Part shown: positions 1,610-49,228 of the stretch, in pieces
Position numbering within the stretch: position 1 is the stretch's first letter
Layout: every line of letters starts with the position of its first letter
Sequence record: PZ445534.1
Origin: a phage
DNA: 64,000 bases
Reading direction: 5' to 3' (one strand)
The notes under the pieces: generated by a model
The model's input: only the letters and a program-made list of their open reading frames with translations
The model's database searches: none
What the model was told of the DNA's origin: nothing
Translations under genes and position numbers: made by a program

Positions 1610-3085
1610 GTGAGAAGAATGGCAGATATTACAGAAACACAAGAAAGCTTACCACCATTTAGAATGGGTGAAGTAGGTTCTTTGGGTCTGAAGGTTAAGA
1701 ATGGAAGAATCTATGAAGAACCTCGTCAGGCACTAAGGTTCCCTGAAAGTATTAAAACTTTCCAATTAATGATGCGTGACCCTGCTGTAGCAGCATCTGT
1801 AAATATTATTAAGATGTTTGTCAGAAAAGTCAACTGGAGATTCGTACCTCCAAAGGGAAAAGAGCAAGACCCTAAAATGCTTGAAAGAGCAGACTTCTTT
1901 AATTCTTTAATGGATGACATGGAGCATGATTGGGCAGATTTTATTAATTCTGTAATGTCATTCTGCACTTATGGGTTCTGTGTTAACGAGAAAGTTTATA
2001 AGAAGCGTCAGGGTAAAAAAGGAAAGTACCAGTCTAAATTTGATGATGGTCTAATTGGATGGGCTAAATTACCAATCAGAAACCAATCAACACTTGATAA
2101 GTGGTATTTTGACGAAGACTTTAGAAAAGTTACAGGTGTTAGGCAGAATCTGAGAAATGTTTCACATATTGCTGGAGCAATTAATCTCGGAGAAAGACCA
2201 CTAACAAGAAAACTTCCACGAGCTAAATTCATGCTGTTCAAGTATGACGATGAATATGGAAATCCAGAAGGTCGTTCACCATTACTTAATGCTTATGTAC
2301 CGTGGAAGTATAAAGTACAGATTGAAGAGTATGAAGCTGTTGGTGTTTCAAGAGACTTGGTAGGTATGCCAAAGATTGGTTTACCACCAGATTATCTGGA
2401 TGAAAATGCAGAACCTGAAAAGAAAGCTTTCGTACAATACTGCAAAACTGTTGTCAACGATATGATTGCTAATGACAGAGCAGGCTTAATCTGGCCTAGA
2501 TATATCGACCCAGATACTAAAGAGGATATTTTCGAGTTCTCATTAGTTTCTAGACAGGGTGCTAAAGCATACGATACAGGTTCTATTATTGACAGATATT
2601 CCAAGCAGATTATGATGGCATTTATGTCAGATGTTCTTGCTATGGGTCAGTCAAAATATGGTTCATTCTCTCTTGCAGATTCTAAGACAAGCTTACTAGC
2701 AATGTCAGTAGATATTCTGCTGAAGCAAATTAAGAACGTAATTAACCGTGATTTAGTTGCACAGACTTATGCTCTTAATATGTGGGATGATGAAGAACAT
2801 GTACAAATCACATATGATGATATCGAAACTCCAGACCTTGAAGCAATTGGCTCTTATATTCAGAAGACTGTTGCAGTAGGTGCTTTGGAAGTTGACAAAG
2901 AGCTATCTAACAAGCTTAGAGAGCATATTGGTCTTCCTCCTGCTGATGAGTCTCAGCCAGTATCTGAAAAGCTTTCTCCAAATAGCCAAAGCCGCTCAGG
3001 AGATGGTTATAAGACCGCTGGAGAAGGTACTGCAAAGACACCTTCAGCGAAAGACCCAAGCACAGCAAATAAGGCAAATAAATAA
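1610..3085 (+). CDS. portal protein
   Basis: 491 aa; position after terminase and before prohead protease; acidic/basic C-terminus. Confidence 0.65.
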   Translation: MRRMADITETQESLPPFRMGEVGSLGLKVKNGRIYEEPRQALRFPESIKTFQLMMRDPAVAASVNIIKMFVRKVNWRFVPPKGKEQDPKMLERADFFNSLMDDMEHDWADFINSVMSFCTYGFCVNEKVYKKRQGKKGKYQSKFDDGLIGWAKLPIRNQSTLDKWYFDEDFRKVTGVRQNLRNVSHIAGAINLGERPLTRKLPRAKFMLFKYDDEYGNPEGRSPLLNAYVPWKYKVQIEEYEAVGVSRDLVGMPKIGLPPDYLDENAEPEKKAFVQYCKTVVNDMIANDRAGLIWPRYIDPDTKEDIFEFSLVSRQGAKAYDTGSIIDRYSKQIMMAFMSDVLAMGQSKYGSFSLADSKTSLLAMSVDILLKQIKNVINRDLVAQTYALNMWDDEEHVQITYDDIETPDLEAIGSYIQKTVAVGALEVDKELSNKLREHIGLPPADESQPVSEKLSPNSQSRSGDGYKTAGEGTAKTPSAKDPSTANKANK

Positions 3086-3585
3086 TGGCTGAAGTTATCT
3101 CTATTTCAAATGCTACACGAGTGCATTCGTATAGAGGTGTTCTTATTATCACTGACAAATTATCTGTAGAGGCTGGCTCAAGGGTCAGCCTTTCAGGTTA
3201 TGTAAGTGATGGTGGAACCTCTGACGTTTTCACTATTTGTAGGTTACTTGATGCACCAATGAGTGGAAAACCGTTTATTTCAGGAAATTGTAGTGAAATT
3301 GTTAAAATTCCATTTGACAGTTCATGCCTTTTGGGTGTAAAGTTATATAACTGCGAGAATAAACGTATCAATGTTAATAGCATTGAAGCCGCTTTCATTA
3401 CCCTCGATACTGCATTTCAATCTCCAATGACAGTTAATAAAGAAACAAACAGACTTGAATACATTTTTTCACAAAATGATTACAAAGTACTTGTCAAAGG
3501 TAAAGTATATGATATGATTGTAAATGTGGTAGATGAATCTGGTAACCATTCAACAGTCCTTAAACAAAAAGTAAGGTTTAATTAA
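3085..3585 (+). CDS. hypothetical head-module protein
   Basis: 166 aa ORF translationally coupled (ATGA overlap) to portal gene. Confidence 0.4.
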   Translation: MAEVISISNATRVHSYRGVLIITDKLSVEAGSRVSLSGYVSDGGTSDVFTICRLLDAPMSGKPFISGNCSEIVKIPFDSSCLLGVKLYNCENKRINVNSIEAAFITLDTAFQSPMTVNKETNRLEYIFSQNDYKVLVKGKVYDMIVNVVDESGNHSTVLKQKVRFN

Positions 3586-29355: not shown

Positions 29356-29546
29356 TATTCAATATCTACAAGTTCTTGTGCAATGCTTTTCAGATTACCT
29401 TTCAAGAAAACCTTCTCAGAACCTGAAAGAGATGAATTGTCAATTAACCTGTTCATTCTCTCAAACAACTTCTGCTTACGATTTTTGATAGTCTCCTTTG
29501 AAGCACCTTTCATCATCGCTGCATGGGTTCTTCCACGATGGCTCAT
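29337..29546 (-). CDS. hypothetical basic protein
   Basis: 69 aa ORF. Confidence 0.3.
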   Translation of the reverse strand: MSHRGRTHAAMMKGASKETIKNRKQKLFERMNRLIDNSSLSGSEKVFLKGNLKSIAQELVDIEYWRHQK

Positions 29547-29597
29547 AAGCCCTCCTATATAAGATATAGTATAAGGTACTCTTCCATGAGCACCTTG

Positions 29598-30131
29598 TCA
29601 ACTTAGTTTTGCAAACTCTCCGTGGAGTTTAATAGCAGCTTCACAGTAAGCTTTATGGGCTTCTTCAGGTGTGTCATGGTGACCTAAAAACATCTTCTTA
29701 CCTTTATAACTTATCTGTGCGACCCACTTACCAGACTTCTTCTTAAGACTTACACCCTTGTACCCAGATTTATTGGTGACCGGTTTACCTTTATTCCAAG
29801 CACTTTGAAAATCATCTGCTTCCCTTAAGTTTACAATCCTGTTGTCAAGTGAGTCTCCGTTGATATGGTCAATGATACCTTTTGGCATCTTGCCATACAC
29901 GTAAAGCCATGCGAGTCTGTGTGCTTTATGTGCTTTCTTGTCAAAATAGATACTAACCTGTTTATGACCACTTGAATCAGTCTGGATATTACCTGCCACC
30001 TTTCCTGCATAATTACTGTTAAAAACACTAACAGCTCTTGATTTACCTTCTCTACGAAGCCAAGTAAAGACCCCTGTTTCGGGGTCATAGTGCAGCAGCT
30101 CCTTTAAACGTTTTTGTAAAATTAAATCCAT
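29598..30131 (-). CDS. free-standing HNH homing endonuclease with AP2-type DNA-binding domain
   Basis: 177 aa; HNH motif IDHINGDSLDNRIVNLR; AP2-like YKGVS...GKWVAQI...GHHDTPEEAHKAY; immediately downstream of split polymerase. Confidence 0.8.
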   Translation of the reverse strand: MDLILQKRLKELLHYDPETGVFTWLRREGKSRAVSVFNSNYAGKVAGNIQTDSSGHKQVSIYFDKKAHKAHRLAWLYVYGKMPKGIIDHINGDSLDNRIVNLREADDFQSAWNKGKPVTNKSGYKGVSLKKKSGKWVAQISYKGKKMFLGHHDTPEEAHKAYCEAAIKLHGEFAKLS

Positions 30132-30134
30132 TAA

Positions 30135-30689
30135 TCAATGTACCTCATACCAGCTCTTACCAACCTTTGCTGTACCAGTTACAAGTGTTTCTTTCCTCAA
30201 ACCTAAGTTTTTTGAAGCTTGTCCATACATCCAGTCAGCAATTGCTTTCATATCATGTGTCATACCCTCTGGACATTCCCAACTATTTTCATCGTGATAT
30301 GCCAGAAGTAACCTTGCTCCGATAGCTGGTTTTCGAGCATTCAGTTTTGTCAGGCCATCTTCACAGGCTTTTCTTGCTGCTAGGTTGATGGCCTCATTCT
30401 GAATCTGTGCTTCCGAACTCATCAGGAGGTAGTTCAGTAGTTTATGTGGAGATTTGCACCATATCCATGCTCCAGCGACCCTGATATAACCACCTTTAGC
30501 AATTGAAGAATTCTTCCCAAAAACCTCTTCCAGAGCCTTTTTAGACGCCTTAAAATCGGCTTCTAAGCTATCAAGTAACTTCTTAATCTTTGGCAGACGC
30601 ATATAGTAAGTTTGTTTAGTCAATGCACCTTCTTCCGTAGATGATGCCTTGATAGTTTTTGCAAACTTCTCGTCTCCAGCCCCGAACAA
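30135..30689 (-). CDS. DNA polymerase (family A) 3' exon / C-terminal part; ORF-track start is an in-frame TTG, true exon start is the intron 3' splice site
   Basis: Contains motif-B continuation LFGAGDEK (T7 gp5 has YGAGDEK) and motif C LLLAYHDE. Confidence 0.75.
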   Translation of the reverse strand: MFGAGDEKFAKTIKASSTEEGALTKQTYYMRLPKIKKLLDSLEADFKASKKALEEVFGKNSSIAKGGYIRVAGAWIWCKSPHKLLNYLLMSSEAQIQNEAINLAARKACEDGLTKLNARKPAIGARLLLAYHDENSWECPEGMTHDMKAIADWMYGQASKNLGLRKETLVTGTAKVGKSWYEVH

Positions 30690-30962
30690 TACATCTGGTC
30701 AATACACTCGCAAGGTGTACCAGTTCTCTTATGAACTTCTCCGCATTTCTACGGAGTGTCGGACTATATCACGTAGCAGTGGTGCTACCGTTGCACTTGG
30801 GATGGTCATTAGCTTACCACCCTACTCTACTCAGTTCATACGTTAAGTATGCTTTTCGATAGTCTCTGAACGTTCCTCTTAAGAGGCTTCGCTGCTGATT
30901 ACCATATCTTTACAGACTTAGGCTTCCAGCAATTCACAACGTTTTACATGCGCCACTGACGC
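30687..30962 (-). ncRNA. putative ORF-less group I self-splicing intron in DNA polymerase gene (boundaries approximate, +/-10 nt)
   Basis: Separates polymerase motif A/B from motif C; minus strand carries group I P7-like elements AGACTATCG and GATATAGTCCGAC; in-frame TAA just inside 5' end. Confidence 0.6.
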
Positions 30963-33131
30963 ATAAATGCCATTTTTGGCTTTCTTACGACCTTTTGTAA
31001 TCTCGTGGAGAAGTTCCTCATCCTGTGTCTCCCTACAACGAACAATGTCTTCTTCCTTGTTCAGACCAAAGTAAATACTATTCAGTGTATGTGCATCAGT
31101 ACCTGTGTAGACTTCATAGAGGTCATTCTCAGCATCATAACGCAGATACTTGTCAGTTTCTGGGTTAAGATACTTGTCAAGATGCTTGCAGTAGTATCTA
31201 CCATCATCTTGCTTAGTGAACTCAACTGACTCTTTACCCTCAGTTACCGCTTTAGTGAAGTCTTCATCACCCATAAAGTTACAAAGAAGAACTAGCTGGG
31301 CTGAGTTTTGGTCTACAGAGACAACGTTAGTACCTTCTTCACAAATCCACACCTCCCTCATAGGTGCTCCATAGACAGCAGCACCAGACGGTACGTTTAC
31401 AATACCATATTGTGTCATACGTCCAGTTGAAGTACCAAACACCATTGCACCAGCACTAAGGCGACCATCAGGACGAATCTGGTTCAACCAACCTTTTTCA
31501 TCATCTTTTGAGTTCTCAATAGTTCTACGTCGGTGCATCAAAGTATAGTACTTAGCAATCTTCTGTCCAAGCTCACCTTCAATCGTATCATAAGATGATT
31601 CAGTAAGTTTTGGTGAAGTACGGATTAAGCAAGGCTCAAGCAAATCTGTGTATTTCTTCACAGACCAGTTATGCTCAATGTACTGGACACCTTCATGCTC
31701 AACATAGCTCAAACCACACCGCTCAACCATTTCCTGCCACTTAGGATGCTTTGTAATCATCTTTTTATTGTCTTTGAAACGACAAACTTTGATAGGGCGA
31801 CCATCTGAGTCTTTCTTGTAATTCCAGTCATCTGGAATCCAACCAACTGATTTCAAGTAGTCTTTAACAACTGCTACCTGAGTCATACGAGAAACTTCAA
31901 ACTCAATTGGTGTATATGGTGCATCAATCAAACCTGTGTAGCGACTTGACTCAAGTTCAAAGTGGTTAACAACGTGGCTGTTATAGTACTTCACAGTTTT
32001 GACTGTTTTTACTGGCTTCCAGTCTTTGCATTTCTTACCAATCTTTGCGTTCAACTCATTGCAAATTGCACGAGCATCCTTCATTGCTACAAAACCTTCC
32101 TTGTACTCTTCACCAGTTACAGAGTTGGTTGGTGTATAGCAATTCCTTTTTTCAATGTTAAAAATCTTTGTAGTTGGCTTACCAAATGGTTTGATTTCGT
32201 ATGTCTGCATCTCACCATTACGTACCTGCTGACGATACTTTGTCTTAGGGTACTTGGTAATTCTTTTCAGTCCATCTGCATGACCAAATGTTTCAACATA
32301 CTCATTCCAAGCTTTTGCAAACTCTTCTCCAGTGACTTTACCTTTGGTCTTAATAGTTGGAGGAAGATGTGGTTCAACCTCTGAAGCAAGCTCATTAGTC
32401 AACTTGTCAAGTTCCTTTACATGGAACTCCATAAGCTCTTTATCAGCTTTCCAACCATTAATAGCTTGTTGACTCATCCAGAAAGATGTTTCTTTAGCTC
32501 GCATGTAGGTTTCATAAGTGTCTATGCCACACTTCTTAAGCTTGAGATACTCATTATCAAGTGCCCGTTTAGTTTTGGCGTTAATACGGATATCTTCTAC
32601 AACACGAGTGAAGATTTCTGCATTCCACACACCCCAATGTTCAATCTCTGGTTTACGAACACCAACACGAGCACCCCATGCAGCCAAGCCATGAGCACCT
32701 TTATAACCCTTTGGAGTTGGTCTATCCATCCACTGAACACGAGACTGGATAAGAGAATCCTGAAAGAAATTACTCCACGGCTTACACTTTGGATTATCAA
32801 AGTTCCATAAATCCGGTGCAATGTGATTGAAAACCCACCAGTCATAACCTAGACCATTATGAATGCAAAGACGTTTTGCCTTTAACGCAAACTCAACACC
32901 TTCACGTAAGCCACCCTTAATGTACTTGGTATACTTGTGACCGAGGATAGGCTCATCTGTAAAGACCCATACAGGCGGCTCTTTATCGTCAGATTTATAG
33001 TCTGCGAAAGCCATTACGTGCACTTTAGTGAACTCAAGGAGTAAACCATCAGTTTCTGTATCACCAACTAAATGTAAGTTTTTAAAATCTACGTTTTCCA
33101 TTTTTACTCCCTCTAAAATCATTAACCTCAT
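30918..33131 (-). CDS. DNA polymerase (family A) 5' exon: 3'-5' exonuclease domain and N-terminal polymerase domain; last ~14 codons of ORF are intron read-through
   Basis: Exo I motif DTETDGL; motif A VDQNSAQLVLL (cf. DYSQIELR); motif B start RKKAKNGIY. Confidence 0.8.
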   Translation of the reverse strand: MRLMILEGVKMENVDFKNLHLVGDTETDGLLLEFTKVHVMAFADYKSDDKEPPVWVFTDEPILGHKYTKYIKGGLREGVEFALKAKRLCIHNGLGYDWWVFNHIAPDLWNFDNPKCKPWSNFFQDSLIQSRVQWMDRPTPKGYKGAHGLAAWGARVGVRKPEIEHWGVWNAEIFTRVVEDIRINAKTKRALDNEYLKLKKCGIDTYETYMRAKETSFWMSQQAINGWKADKELMEFHVKELDKLTNELASEVEPHLPPTIKTKGKVTGEEFAKAWNEYVETFGHADGLKRITKYPKTKYRQQVRNGEMQTYEIKPFGKPTTKIFNIEKRNCYTPTNSVTGEEYKEGFVAMKDARAICNELNAKIGKKCKDWKPVKTVKTVKYYNSHVVNHFELESSRYTGLIDAPYTPIEFEVSRMTQVAVVKDYLKSVGWIPDDWNYKKDSDGRPIKVCRFKDNKKMITKHPKWQEMVERCGLSYVEHEGVQYIEHNWSVKKYTDLLEPCLIRTSPKLTESSYDTIEGELGQKIAKYYTLMHRRRTIENSKDDEKGWLNQIRPDGRLSAGAMVFGTSTGRMTQYGIVNVPSGAAVYGAPMREVWICEEGTNVVSVDQNSAQLVLLCNFMGDEDFTKAVTEGKESVEFTKQDDGRYYCKHLDKYLNPETDKYLRYDAENDLYEVYTGTDAHTLNSIYFGLNKEEDIVRCRETQDEELLHEITKGRKKAKNGIYASVAHVKRCELLEA

Positions 33132-33161
33132 ACATTACTGCAAAAAATTATAAAAAGCAAG

Positions 33162-33190
33162 TTGACAATGCACTTGACAAGGTGTTAATC
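33162..33190 (+). promoter_or_regulatory. candidate promoter region with tandem TTGACA hexamers in divergent intergenic region
   Basis: TTGACA at 33162 and 33174 in AT-rich 227 bp region between divergent polymerase and rightward operon; -10 element weak. Confidence 0.25.
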
Positions 33191-33358
33191 TTTGCGAAGT
33201 GGGTTTTTACTTAAAAGGTTACTTAACAGTTTAACTATACAGATACTTTAAAACTCTTAAAAGATTATTTAATAGCTTTTAAAAAGCTTTAAAATATAAC
33301 GTATAGAATACGTTAAGATAAAAGATTAAAACTTAATAGTTACTTAAAAGAGGCTTAC

Positions 33359-46767: not shown

Positions 46768-47964
46768 ATGAACAAAGTACAGATTATTAAAAAGAATGGC
46801 TCACTTGAAGAACCTGATATCAAAAAAGTTTTAGCAGCAGTCACAAAGTCAGCTAACAGAGTTGGTTATAAAGAGCTTCCACCAGATGTTACTCAAGCTC
46901 TTGAGTCAGCATTTATGAGGATTCTGGTAAAGTCCACTAAGCAGAATAATTTGCTAATTTCGGTAAATGATATTCACAGTATTGTTGAGGGTGCTTTGGC
47001 AGAAGTCAATCACGAGATTTATGAGTCTTACTCAACATATAGAAATTACCGTAAAGAGGTTGCTCAAAATTGGGATGAACTCTACCAGAAGACCAAAGAT
47101 ACACTCTTCTTAGGCGACCGAGAAAACGCTAATTTTGACAGCAGTTTAATTTCTACAAAAGGCTCAATTATTCGTGGTTACCTGACTAAAGAAATCTTTA
47201 AACAGTACCATTTAACACCAGAGGAACTTGAAGCCATTGAAAAAGGATTTATCTATATCCATGATTTAAGAGACCTAATTTTTGGTGGTATCAACTGTTG
47301 CCTGTTTGACATTGGTAAAGTCCTGAAAGGTGGCTTTGAAATGTCTGGCATTGAATATTGTGAACCGAAGTCTGTGCTGTCAGCCTTACAGGTTATTGGT
47401 GATGTAGTTCTTTCAGCAACTGCACAGCAATTTGGTGGCTTTACTTTAGCAGAGATTGATAAGGTACTTGTACCGTATGCTAAGAAGTCTCTACGTTACC
47501 ATGCTGAAAAAGCAACAGCTTATGGTATTCCTAAAGAACATTACCACAACTATGTCATGGAGCAGCTACAGATTGAATTAACTCAAGGTTTTCAGTCTCT
47601 TGAAATGAAGCTCAATACTGTGCCTTGTAGCCGTGGTGATTTTGCATTCACAACTTTGACATTCGGGTTACTTGACTCAGATATGTCTAATGAAGATAAC
47701 CGACTGCAATACATGATTGCGAGCACTCTCCTAGATGTTCGTATGAATGGACAAGGTAAGAGCAAGAAACCTGTTGTATTCCCTAAACTGGTTTATATTT
47801 ATGACCAGAAGAGACACAATGAGAATATCTGTCAAGGCCACCTGTACAGTAAAGCTATTGAGTGTTGCTCTAAAGCTATGTATCCAGATTTCTTAAGTGT
47901 ATCTGGACATGGTGCTGTAGCAGAGGCTTTTGAGCGTTCTGGCAAGGTAATTTCCCCGATGGGT
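46768..47964 (+). CDS. nrdD: anaerobic ribonucleoside-triphosphate reductase, exon 1
   Basis: N-terminal ATP-cone; exon ends ...ISPMG before intron that begins with in-frame TAA. Confidence 0.85.
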
Positions 47965-48280
47965 TAACAAGCTCTATAGCTCATCTAAAACGTGCCTAAA
48001 CAGGGAAACTCTACAGATGTAGACAATCCTGTGCTAAATGATGTACGATGTAAGAAACTATACAACATAGGAGTCTTACATGCCAAATAACTTCGAATAT
48101 GAGTTTGAATACATCTAAATGCCGAACGACTAACCGTGATGAATGTAGCGGTGTAGGGTCAAGCGACTCGAAATGGTACGCTACTTAGAAATAAGTAGAA
48201 GATATAGTCTGGACTTACTGGCGACAGTAAGCAGCTTGAATAAAGCGGGGTAAGCTTAGCGAACTTACTTGAACAACAAG
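47965..48280 (+). ncRNA. group I self-splicing intron (ORF-less, td/nrdD-like) in nrdD
   Basis: 316 nt; strongly resembles T4 td intron core as recalled (CCTAAACAGGGAAACTCTACAGATGTAGACAATCCTGTGCTAAATG; GTAGGGTCAAGCGACTCGAAATGG; AGATATAGTCTGGAC); exon 1 ends in T, intron ends in G, spliced frame preserved. Confidence 0.8.
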
Positions 48281-49228
48281 TGTAGAGCATTTTTATCACC
48301 ATACCATAACGAACATGGTGAAGAGTTTTATGTAGGTCGTGCTAACATTGGTGCTGTATCTTTGAACTTACCAATGATTTATCAGTACACCAAAGAGAAT
48401 GGCTTAGATTTCTGGAAAGAGCTTGATAAGTACCTAGAAATGATTCGCAGCTTCCACAAGAAACGTTACGAAATGATTGCTAATATGCCAGCAAGTTCTA
48501 ACCCTCTTGCATTCACACAGGGTGGTCTGTACAAAGGGAATAAGAAACCTACTGACAAGGTTGGCTGGGATATCGTGAAGTCCTTCACAGCTTCTTTTGG
48601 GGTTACTGCGCTTGATGAGCTATCTGTTCTTGCTGAAGGTAAACGACTCCATGAAGTTGGAAGCTGTAGTTTTGCATATGATGTTCTGGCATACATTAAC
48701 ATGAAAACTGAAGAGTTTAAGAACGAAGATGGCTTCTTGTATGCGGTATATGGCACTCCAGCAGAATCACTTTGTGGAACTCAGTTAAAACAGTTCAGAG
48801 ATATGTTTGGCGTTATTAAAGGTGTCTCTGACAAGGAATACTTTACAAACAGTTTCCATATGAATGTTGCAGCAGACATCTCACCATTTGAGAAGCAGGA
48901 CTTAGAAGAGCCATTCTTCCATATCTGTAGAGGTGGTAGAATCCAGTATGTAAGGGTAGCTAACCCAGAAAACTTAACAGCACTTAAAAGTTGTATTACA
49001 AGAGGGATGTTGAAAGGTTTCTATCAGGGGCTTAACTTTGACTTAGCAATCTGTGAACATTGTGGTAACAGACCAAAGGCTGATGTTGAAGAATGTGAGG
49101 TTTGCCATTCACATGATATCTCTGTGATTAACAGGGTGTGCGGGTACTTGTCATTCACAAAAATTAAAGGTCAGTCTCGAATGAATGACGCTAAGATGGC
49201 AGAAATTAAGGATAGGGTTTCTATGTAA
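48281..49228 (+). CDS. nrdD: anaerobic ribonucleoside-triphosphate reductase, exon 2 (glycyl radical domain)
   Basis: Begins CRAFLS...; C-terminal zinc site CEHCG...CEVCH and glycyl-radical motif RVCGYL. Confidence 0.85.
   Translation, partial: CRAFLSPYHNEHGEEFYVGRANIGAVSLNLPMIYQYTKENGLDFWKELDKYLEMIRSFHKKRYEMIANMPASSNPLAFTQGGLYKGNKKPTDKVGWDIVKSFTASFGVTALDELSVLAEGKRLHEVGSCSFAYDVLAYINMKTEEFKNEDGFLYAVYGTPAESLCGTQLKQFRDMFGVIKGVSDKEYFTNSFHMNVAADISPFEKQDLEEPFFHICRGGRIQYVRVANPENLTALKSCITRGMLKGFYQGLNFDLAICEHCGNRPKADVEECEVCHSHDISVINRVCGYLSFTKIKGQSRMNDAKMAEIKDRVSM

Follow-up and report, generated by a model that had tools for sequence, protein, structure and literature searches.

Within the 64,000-nt stretch of phage DNA that was analysed here at its full length (sequence record PZ445534.1; hereafter the window), a family-A DNA polymerase gene is broken inside one of its catalytic motifs and is directly followed by a gene for an HNH endonuclease. 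This locus raises the questions of how one polymerase is made from the two parts and whether the endonuclease mobilises the DNA that separates them. Here, we provide evidence that polymerase motif B is interrupted by a 267-nt group I intron without an open reading frame (ORF). The intron is probably the ORF-less sibling of a conventional mobile intron, with the HNH gene as a separate module, and it likely persists or spreads passively. The window derives from a Felixounavirus (Felix O1-like myophage), a group of phages with wide use in biocontrol and typing. Positions 29400-33300 are 96-97% identical over their full length to many Felix O1-like myophages (e.g., L27, pSJ21, and REP5-12) and match 263 GenBank phage records, nearly all of which annotate two separate 'DNA polymerase' coding sequences (CDSs) followed by an 'HNH endonuclease'.

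An ORF-less intron of group I in polymerase motif B

The locus consists of the following elements.

30959-33131, minus strand: exon 1 of the family-A DNA polymerase (ORF list, splice-site deduction, translation, and colinearity with intron-less polymerases).
30692-30958, minus strand: ORF-less group I intron, 267 nt, IA2-like (RF00028 match of 61.7 bits, helices checked on the sequence, folding, and variant comparison).
30948-30964, minus strand: helix P1, with the intron strand of P10 (direct sequence reading).
30875-30886, minus strand: P6a hairpin, CCUCUUAAGAGG (alignment of intron variants).
30762-30864, minus strand: region bounded by the P7 pseudoknot strands, GACUAU at 30864-30859 and AUAGUC at 30767-30762 (Rfam match and sequence reading).
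30135-30691, minus strand: polymerase exon 2, which contains the remainder of motif B, then motif C, and ends in the TGA stop at 30137-30135.
29598-30131, minus strand: free-standing homing-endonuclease gene with HNH_3 and AP2 domains, 177 aa (Pfam and junction sequence).

A first-pass annotation of the window, made from the sequence alone, had assigned the polymerase to two minus-strand ORFs, and all motifs that it named are present. The 5' ORF (30918-33131, 737 aa) holds DTETDGL, VDQNSAQLVLL, and RKKAKNGIY, and the 3' ORF (30135-30689, 184 aa), on which Pfam detects DNA_pol_A, holds LFGAGDEK and LLLAYHDE. The start codon lies at 33131 or at 33101, with relatives annotated from MENVDF at 33101. 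The covariance-model search that the annotation had suggested for the minus strand was run as an Rfam scan of the whole window at gathering thresholds, and the group I intron model RF00028 matched at 30739-31021 on this strand with 61.7 bits (E = 3e-13; gathering score, 50 bits). The intron itself measures 267 nt (30692-30958) and exceeds the gap between the two ORFs, which is 228 nt; the exon 1 ORF reads 13 codons into the intron. No ORF lies within the 267 nt.

Splice sites were deduced from the pairing of the intron with its exons. The last base of exon 1 is U30959, the first base of a Leu codon, in the context ...GGCAUUUAUGCGU|CAGUGGCGCAUGUAAAA... In P1, the exon sequence AUGCGU (30964-30959) pairs over 6 bp with the internal guide GCGCAU (30953-30948), and the closing pair at the 5' splice site is U.G. 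The intron bases CAGUG (30958-30954) can in addition form P10 with UAUUG of exon 2 (30691-30687), the intron terminates in G30692, and exon 2 begins at 30691. P1, P10, and the terminal G together yield a unique solution, which is also the only one that restores the reading frame. The joined exons form a single open frame of 909 codons reading ...GRKKAKNGIYALLFGAGDEKFAK..., and motif B, inside which the break had correctly been placed, is restored as ...RKKAKNGIYA-L-LFGAGDEK... In the numbering of E. coli Pol I (K758, F762, and Y766), the junction lies in motif B and separates the first base of the codon equivalent to residue 764 from its other two bases. At this junction, 19 intron-less loci from Felix O1, HY02, AN17P8, SP116, SUSP2, and wV8-like phages are colinear with zero gap, and the two exons likewise meet directly in Bas63 and a dozen IMG/VR contigs. 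Felix O1 encodes a single 906-aa polymerase, and no introns were reported for it (PMC3185647).

Two other placements were rejected. Taking the edges of the Rfam match as splice sites forces P1/P2 onto exon sequence and ends the intron before P9.1/P9.2; the match extends 63 nt past the 5' splice site and falls 47 nt short of the 3' splice site. A 3' splice site after G30695 (...YAYVLFG) introduces one extra residue as compared to all intron-less homologues and offers no P10 pairing.

Splicing could proceed as follows. The internal guide would bind the last six bases of exon 1 and set the U.G pair at the 5' splice site, after which an external guanosine would attack after U30959. The guide would then pair with the first five bases of exon 2 in P10, and the exons would be ligated following the terminal G30692. 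The expected ligated RNA has the junction ...AAUGGCAUUUAUGCGU|UAUUGUUCGGGG... and would encode one 909-aa polymerase (...KNGIYALLFGAGDEK...).

The intron sequence accommodates P1, P3, P4, P5/P5a, P6/P6a, P7, P7.1, P7.2, P8, P9, P9.1, and P9.2 with canonical pairs, including the P3/P7 pseudoknot among the conserved core helices P3-P9; no P2, i.e., no helix between P1 and P3, was found in it. Two strings that had been singled out as P7-like, AGACTATCG (30865-30857) and GATATAGTCCGAC (30769-30757), are the two P7 strands (GACUAU/AUAGUC), and they enclose P7.1 (intron nt 108-122), P7.2 (intron nt 137-159), the 3' strand of P3, and P8. Free folding (minimum free energy and centroid) recovers P4-P6a, P7.1, P7.2, P8, and P9-P9.2, at a minimum free energy of -78.6 kcal/mol (z-score of -2.35 versus shuffled sequences). 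The location of P7.1/P7.2 between P7 and the 3' strand of P3, the absence of P2, and the ORF in P6a of sister copies agree with subgroup IA2, of which the 'G-U-A linker' is matched only loosely, by a GUA immediately 5' of P7.2. An IA2-like layout is known for other phage polymerase introns (PMC3428280).

Variation among related copies bears on whether this structure is functional. Comparison of 13 distinct intron variants from 14 related loci with the window copy revealed 14 substitutions, ten at unpaired positions and four forming two compensatory pairs (C-G to U-A in P6a; C-G to U-A with a U.G intermediate in P8), and none of the 13 variants carries a helix-breaking substitution. The exon bases TATGCGT|TATTG, which are needed for P1 and P10, are kept in all intron-containing alleles, whereas in intron-less alleles the protein sequence is unchanged but up to 8 synonymous differences occur within ~25 nt (e.g., ATCTACGCCC|TGTTATTTGGAGCC). 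The exclusively compensatory changes in helices and the invariant P1/P10 exon bases argue for a functional ribozyme and not for a dead spacer.

It is very improbable that the polymerase is instead naturally split, with the two ORFs translated separately, their products assembling without splicing, and the intervening RNA being a dead intron remnant. Such a reading would agree with the two separate 'DNA polymerase' CDSs of most GenBank records and with the genes-in-pieces ribonucleotide reductase of a T4-related phage (cited in PMC4392139). However, it is the O-helix that is broken, with the Lys of motif B on one side and the aromatic residues on the other, and exon 2 has no ATG; its only in-frame TTG is part of the conserved Leu-Leu-Phe sequence. 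The structural constraint on the intron core and the invariance of the P1/P10 exon bases in intron-containing alleles, as opposed to their freedom to vary in intron-less ones, also speak against a split enzyme. As these are independently isolated lytic phages and the polymerase is essential, joining of the exons is a necessity. A frameshift or sequencing error had been named as a refuting alternative. An artefact of sequencing or assembly, by which a frameshift or a chimeric insert would split the gene, is scarcely conceivable; it is excluded because a 267-268 nt insert, 96-99.6% identical and matching the covariance model of group I introns, recurs at this position in dozens of phages that were sequenced independently.

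We also noted that intron-less alleles of the Felix O1/HY02/AN17P8/SP116 type (loci L002, L003, L005, and L009) carry ~8 clustered synonymous substitutions in the region homologous to 30935-30985, with exons otherwise 95-100% identical. This cluster at the insertion site could be a co-conversion footprint or a recoding that resists an endonuclease.

Sibling introns and the possible origin of the ORF-less form

Phages JH2, FSL SP-010, and VSe102 carry introns in which a 536-nt insert is flanked on either side by sequence 96-99% identical to the window intron. This insert is located between intron nt 77 and 80, in the P6a loop (equivalent to 30882/30879), and codes for an Endonuclease_7 family member of 160 aa (PF02945, 1e-19, on the JH2 ORF). 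The proteins of JH2, EC6, and FSL SP-010 were previously listed, together with a protein of phage LUZ24, as intron-encoded homing endonucleases with the Endo VII motif DHHRN (PMC6083498). Introns of the JH2, EC6, and FSL SP-010 type share the insertion site, the exon context, and the ribozyme core (96-99% identical) with the window intron but differ from it in the endonuclease gene in P6a and, in 21 of 33 phages, in lacking an HNH gene downstream. Since sister copies carry their own Endonuclease_7 gene in P6a, they offer a simpler origin for the mobility of this intron than cutting by the HNH protein.

A second ORF-less form is found in garuso, Mushroom, and NJ12. This garuso-type intron is 311 nt long, scores 63.3 bits against RF00028, and has kept both ends of the insert, fused at a CTAA(A/G)CAAA microhomology; judged by these remnants, it clearly appears to be a deletion of the intron-encoded endonuclease gene.

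The direction of change is less evident for the window-type intron. The ORF-less intron could be ancestral, the JH2/FSL SP-010 type having arisen by invasion of the P6a loop by an Endonuclease-VII-type gene. In the window type, P6a forms a clean stem of 4 bp whose loop is UUAA and whose closing C-G pair is stronger; unlike in the garuso type, it holds no remnant of the insert. An inverted repeat (GTTAGGA...TCCTAAC) on either side of the insert lengthens P6a, as would be expected had the insert arrived as a unit, and invasion of introns by endonuclease genes is an established model (PMC3984707). We nevertheless regard this direction as somewhat unlikely. The ORF-less and ORF-containing forms are ~98% identical, and the event is thus recent; deletion of the ORF demonstrably occurs within this intron family, as in the garuso type. 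Furthermore, the polymerase intron of the distant phage LUZ24 carries a homologous Endonuclease-VII gene (51% aa identity) at a site ~6 nt away, which suggests that the unit of intron plus endonuclease is old. The LUZ24 intron, from a Bruynoghevirus, likewise breaks a family-A polymerase in motif B, encodes an endonuclease 51% identical to that of JH2, and has similar P7 and P9. It differs from the window intron in that its 5' splice site would lie two codons further upstream (KTFI-T|AT versus IYA-T|TA here), that the intron contains the ORF, and that no HNH gene follows the polymerase.

The ORF-less window intron would be unable to home by itself. Its persistence and spread are most likely passive, either because it is co-converted together with the HNH module next to it (trans-homing or turnover of homing-endonuclease genes) or through breaks made by the intron-encoded enzyme of sister phages in mixed infections.

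The downstream HNH-AP2 gene and its possible link to the intron

The HNH-AP2 gene that the first-pass annotation had placed directly 3' of the polymerase is intact. Pfam identifies an N-terminal HNH_3 domain (PF13392, 9e-15) and a C-terminal AP2 domain (PF00847, 1e-12) that also matches plant AP2 structures; HNH-AP2 proteins are a recognised class of homing endonucleases (PMC10448857). The ATG is 3 nt past the polymerase TGA, with GAGG within the last polymerase codons, and no promoter-like or terminator-like site was found between the polymerase stop and the HNH start. The slot after the polymerase stop varies among relatives. JH2, FSL SP-010, and wV8-like genomes have nothing in it, and in others it is filled by one of several HNH_3+AP2 alleles of 504-537 nt that are ~48% identical to each other at the amino acid level. 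An HNH-AP2 ORF with 33% identity over 165 aa to the window HNH protein resides inside a related intron of the RNA polymerase gene in the Gamaleyavirus ZQ2.

The HNH-AP2 alleles have a mosaic structure. Over its last 79 nt, the window HNH gene is 99-100% identical to the alleles of Felix O1 and garuso (loci L005, L008, and L004), and the remainder of the gene shares only ~48% protein identity with them. This pattern suggests that recombination may take place inside the endonuclease genes or that a downstream element is conserved.

The association between the intron ORF and the downstream HNH gene was surveyed with chimeric long BLAST queries on GenBank records, and the locus was read in 20 records. 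The queries completed a census for which a 52-nt probe for the ORF-less P6a had returned 34 records only, in a megablast search requiring a 28-nt exact word; a scan of IMG/VR for further loci returned 16, mostly intron-less. The intron is present in ~97 of ~258 related GenBank records. In the 46 phages with an ORF-less intron of window or garuso type, an HNH-AP2 gene of one of at least four allele types is always located downstream (46/46), whereas phages with the ORF-containing intron have an HNH gene in 12 cases and lack it in 21 (n = 33). Fisher's exact test gives p = 5e-11 for this difference, a value that is overstated, as the genomes are related and include only two independent ORF-less forms. 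Three of the four possible combinations of intron ORF and HNH gene thus exist, and the ORF-less intron without downstream HNH gene was not found in the GenBank census (0/46).

[quoted passage not shown] The first part has held up, but joint inheritance has not. HY02 and AN17P8 possess the HNH gene (97-99% identical) without the intron, and Meda, phiWec177, fKMPT1, and tootiki carry the same intron with other HNH alleles. We therefore read the intron and the HNH gene as what would be separate mobile modules. The ORF-less intron occurs only where it has an endonuclease gene as its neighbour, which fits trans-homing (PMC2790892, PMC2988022) or endonuclease turnover (PMC10448857).

A stricter version of collaborative homing holds that the HNH-AP2 protein cuts the intron-less polymerase gene at or next to the motif B site and that repair copies the intron, exon 2, and HNH gene together. 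The co-occurrence with the ORF-less intron (46/46 versus 12/33 for ORF-containing copies) is what such a mechanism would produce, and precedents are found in cyanophage S-PM2 and T3/T7-like phages (summarised in PMC3984707, PMC2988022, and PMC10448857). At every locus with a window-type HNH gene (at least 94% aa identity), moreover, the insertion site is either split by the intron or carries the ~8 clustered synonymous changes (ATCTACGCCC|TGTTATTTGGAGCC), as self-immunity would look. The comparison of the window with AN17P8 points in the opposite direction. Exon 2 is identical from +15 onward and the HNH gene is 98.5% identical; besides scattered differences in exon 1, only the intron and at most ~50 nt around the site differ. 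Thus, the intron moved, or was lost, independently of the HNH gene. The same intron also occurs beside at least three HNH allele types, and the divergent tracts that accompany gain, loss, or allele swaps of the HNH gene have their start at exon 2 +71, ~+300, ~+400, or ~+540 but never at the insertion site. In wV8-like genomes, the insertion-site sequence TATGCAC|TGCTGTTCGG is the same with the HNH gene (loci L014, L015, and L024) as without it (loci L016-L022), and in the HNH-positive, intron-less genomes of SUSP2 type the site is one mismatch away from an intron-compatible sequence. On balance, we consider this mechanism unlikely. Co-conversion footprints yielded no assignable HNH target, with tract edges that differ among genomes (exon 2 +71/+88, ~+302-318, ~+350-450, and ~+536). 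Genomes with the HNH gene are not distinguished from those without it by a variable patch at exon 2 +318-328, and no consistent 'immunity' patch was located between these two groups. Cleavage of the insertion site by the HNH protein in the strict sense is possible but unsupported.

Several points weigh against reading the window intron as a passively spreading sibling of a mobile intron with a separate HNH gene. The HNH-linked exchange tracts do not reach the intron, and hitch-hiking with the HNH gene is thus not directly evidenced. The co-occurrence count is not phylogenetically independent, with only two independent ORF-less forms, and could also arise because an acquired HNH gene is rarely lost. 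The short P6a (CCUCUUAAGAGG, with C-G in place of the U-A of ORF-containing copies) could be ancestral and predate the invasion, and not be a deletion product. Finally, the sequences show the intron, its splice junction, the homology to ORF-containing copies, the HNH domains, and the pattern of co-occurrence, whereas we infer splicing activity, and equally the activity and target of the endonuclease and the direction of ORF gain or loss.

Known systems and possible endonuclease turnover in Felixounavirus

The window intron is already known from the genome announcements of Mushroom (2015) and Meda (2019), and its ORF-containing form was catalogued in 2018. The Meda intron (MH586731) is the same element, 99.6% identical over all 267 nt, in a CDS that has been joined, and is accompanied by a different HNH-AP2 allele (513 nt) from that of the window; the announcement mentions an intron without HNH endonuclease within the DNA polymerase gene (PMC6486253). 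Mushroom (KP143762) has the garuso-type ORF-less variant, described as a polymerase in two genes 383 bp apart with no endonuclease ORF between them (PMC4392139). Both papers devote one sentence to the element and give no splice sites, structure, subgroup, link to the ORF-containing form, or analysis of the HNH gene. A paper on phage SPJ41 (2023) lists 'two introns' among non-coding RNAs (PMC9951933). For phage family-A polymerases, introns had earlier been tabulated at positions 674, 676, and 881 (PMC3428280); with motif B, the window and LUZ24 use a further site but not a new one. The pattern of ORF loss versus downstream HNH gene at the population level appears to be undescribed in the literature searchable here.

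T7-like coliphages had been invoked as a precedent for the arrangement in the window. They do provide an HNH_3 gene immediately 3' of a family-A polymerase, in T3, but the introns of PhiI/W31 carry their own HNH gene at another site, so that the comparison is one of analogy only. The T3 HNH protein has 101 aa, lacks AP2, and shares with the window HNH protein only the HNH_3 domain, with no significant overall similarity. The PhiI/W31 introns have the same IA2-type architecture as the window intron (P7.1/P7.2, no P2, ORF site in P6a) but are inserted at E. coli Pol I position 881 in motif C, with the HNH gene inside P6a (PMC3428280), as compared to 763/764 in motif B for the window intron. T3 and the PhiI/W31 phages are the source of the 'collaborative homing' idea (Bonocora & Shub 2004, 2009, summarised in PMC3428280, PMC3984707, and PMC10448857). 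Comparable in layout are the S-PM2 psbA intron with the adjacent F-CphI and the T4 nrdB intron with mobE (trans homing), in which an intron without ORF or with a defunct ORF also lies beside a free-standing endonuclease gene that is able to take the intron with it (PMC2988022, PMC2790892). In those systems, cleavage sites and co-inheritance were measured, whereas sequence comparison indicates here that intron and HNH gene were exchanged as separate modules.

Related elements were found elsewhere. A second RF00028 match in the window (47850-48231, plus strand, 54.6 bits) lies between ORFs 46768-47967 and 48269-49228 and splits nrdD (anaerobic ribonucleotide reductase); this intron is also ORF-less. 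Papers on the relatives UAB_Phi87, Meda, and Mushroom describe a homing endonuclease gene interrupting nrdD, apparently at the same position. Outside Felixounavirus, the intron core has its nearest relative (72.7% identity over 208 nt) in an unannotated group I intron at 460-703 of Escherichia phage vB_EcoP-ZQ2 (locus L036, MW630115.1; RF00028, 91.8 bits) that splits the phage RNA polymerase gene, and the ZQ2 ORF at 764-1408 encodes a 214-aa HNH_3+AP2 protein annotated as hypothetical. The crAss-like phage cr3_1 (locus L038, MT774381.1) has at ~2500-3570 two polymerase CDSs around a stretch that resembles the window intron core (74% over 117 nt); this stretch contains a GIY-YIG ORF, is not annotated as an intron, and scores below the Rfam gathering threshold. 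The Felixounavirus polymerase-intron-HNH block was also present, at 96-98% identity, in GenBank records MG065664.1 and MG065668.1 ('Campylobacter phage A132/A126'), which are probably mislabelled or contaminated assemblies and not Campylobacter phages.

The intron in the window is real and is now precisely delimited. Most of the ~97 GenBank records that carry the intron need re-annotation, with their two 'DNA polymerase' CDSs joined at ...GCGT|TATTG...; among the records inspected, this has been done only for Meda. The arrangement of intron and HNH gene is ordinary for phage mobile DNA. It adds nothing categorically new, as group I introns in phage family-A polymerases, HNH-AP2 genes, and partnerships of introns and endonucleases are all established.

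Tentatively, and with less than even confidence, we propose that homing-endonuclease turnover may have left a natural time series at the Felixounavirus polymerase locus, one that ends with an ORF-less intron dependent on the HNH gene for its spread. The intron would at first have carried its own Endonuclease-VII-type gene. A free-standing HNH-AP2 gene would then have landed downstream of the polymerase, with phages of the VSe102/Si3 type as the intermediate, and only afterwards would the intronic gene have been lost, at least twice independently. From then on, the ORF-less intron would rely on the neighbouring HNH gene for spread. If true, the locus would provide field evidence for the proposal by Barth et al. 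2023 (PMC10448857) that 'collaborative homing' loci originate from turnover, and this view is directly testable with culturable E. coli and Salmonella phages. The value of the Felixounavirus polymerase locus is modest and lies in a well-sampled, culturable system for the study of trans-homing and endonuclease-gene turnover.

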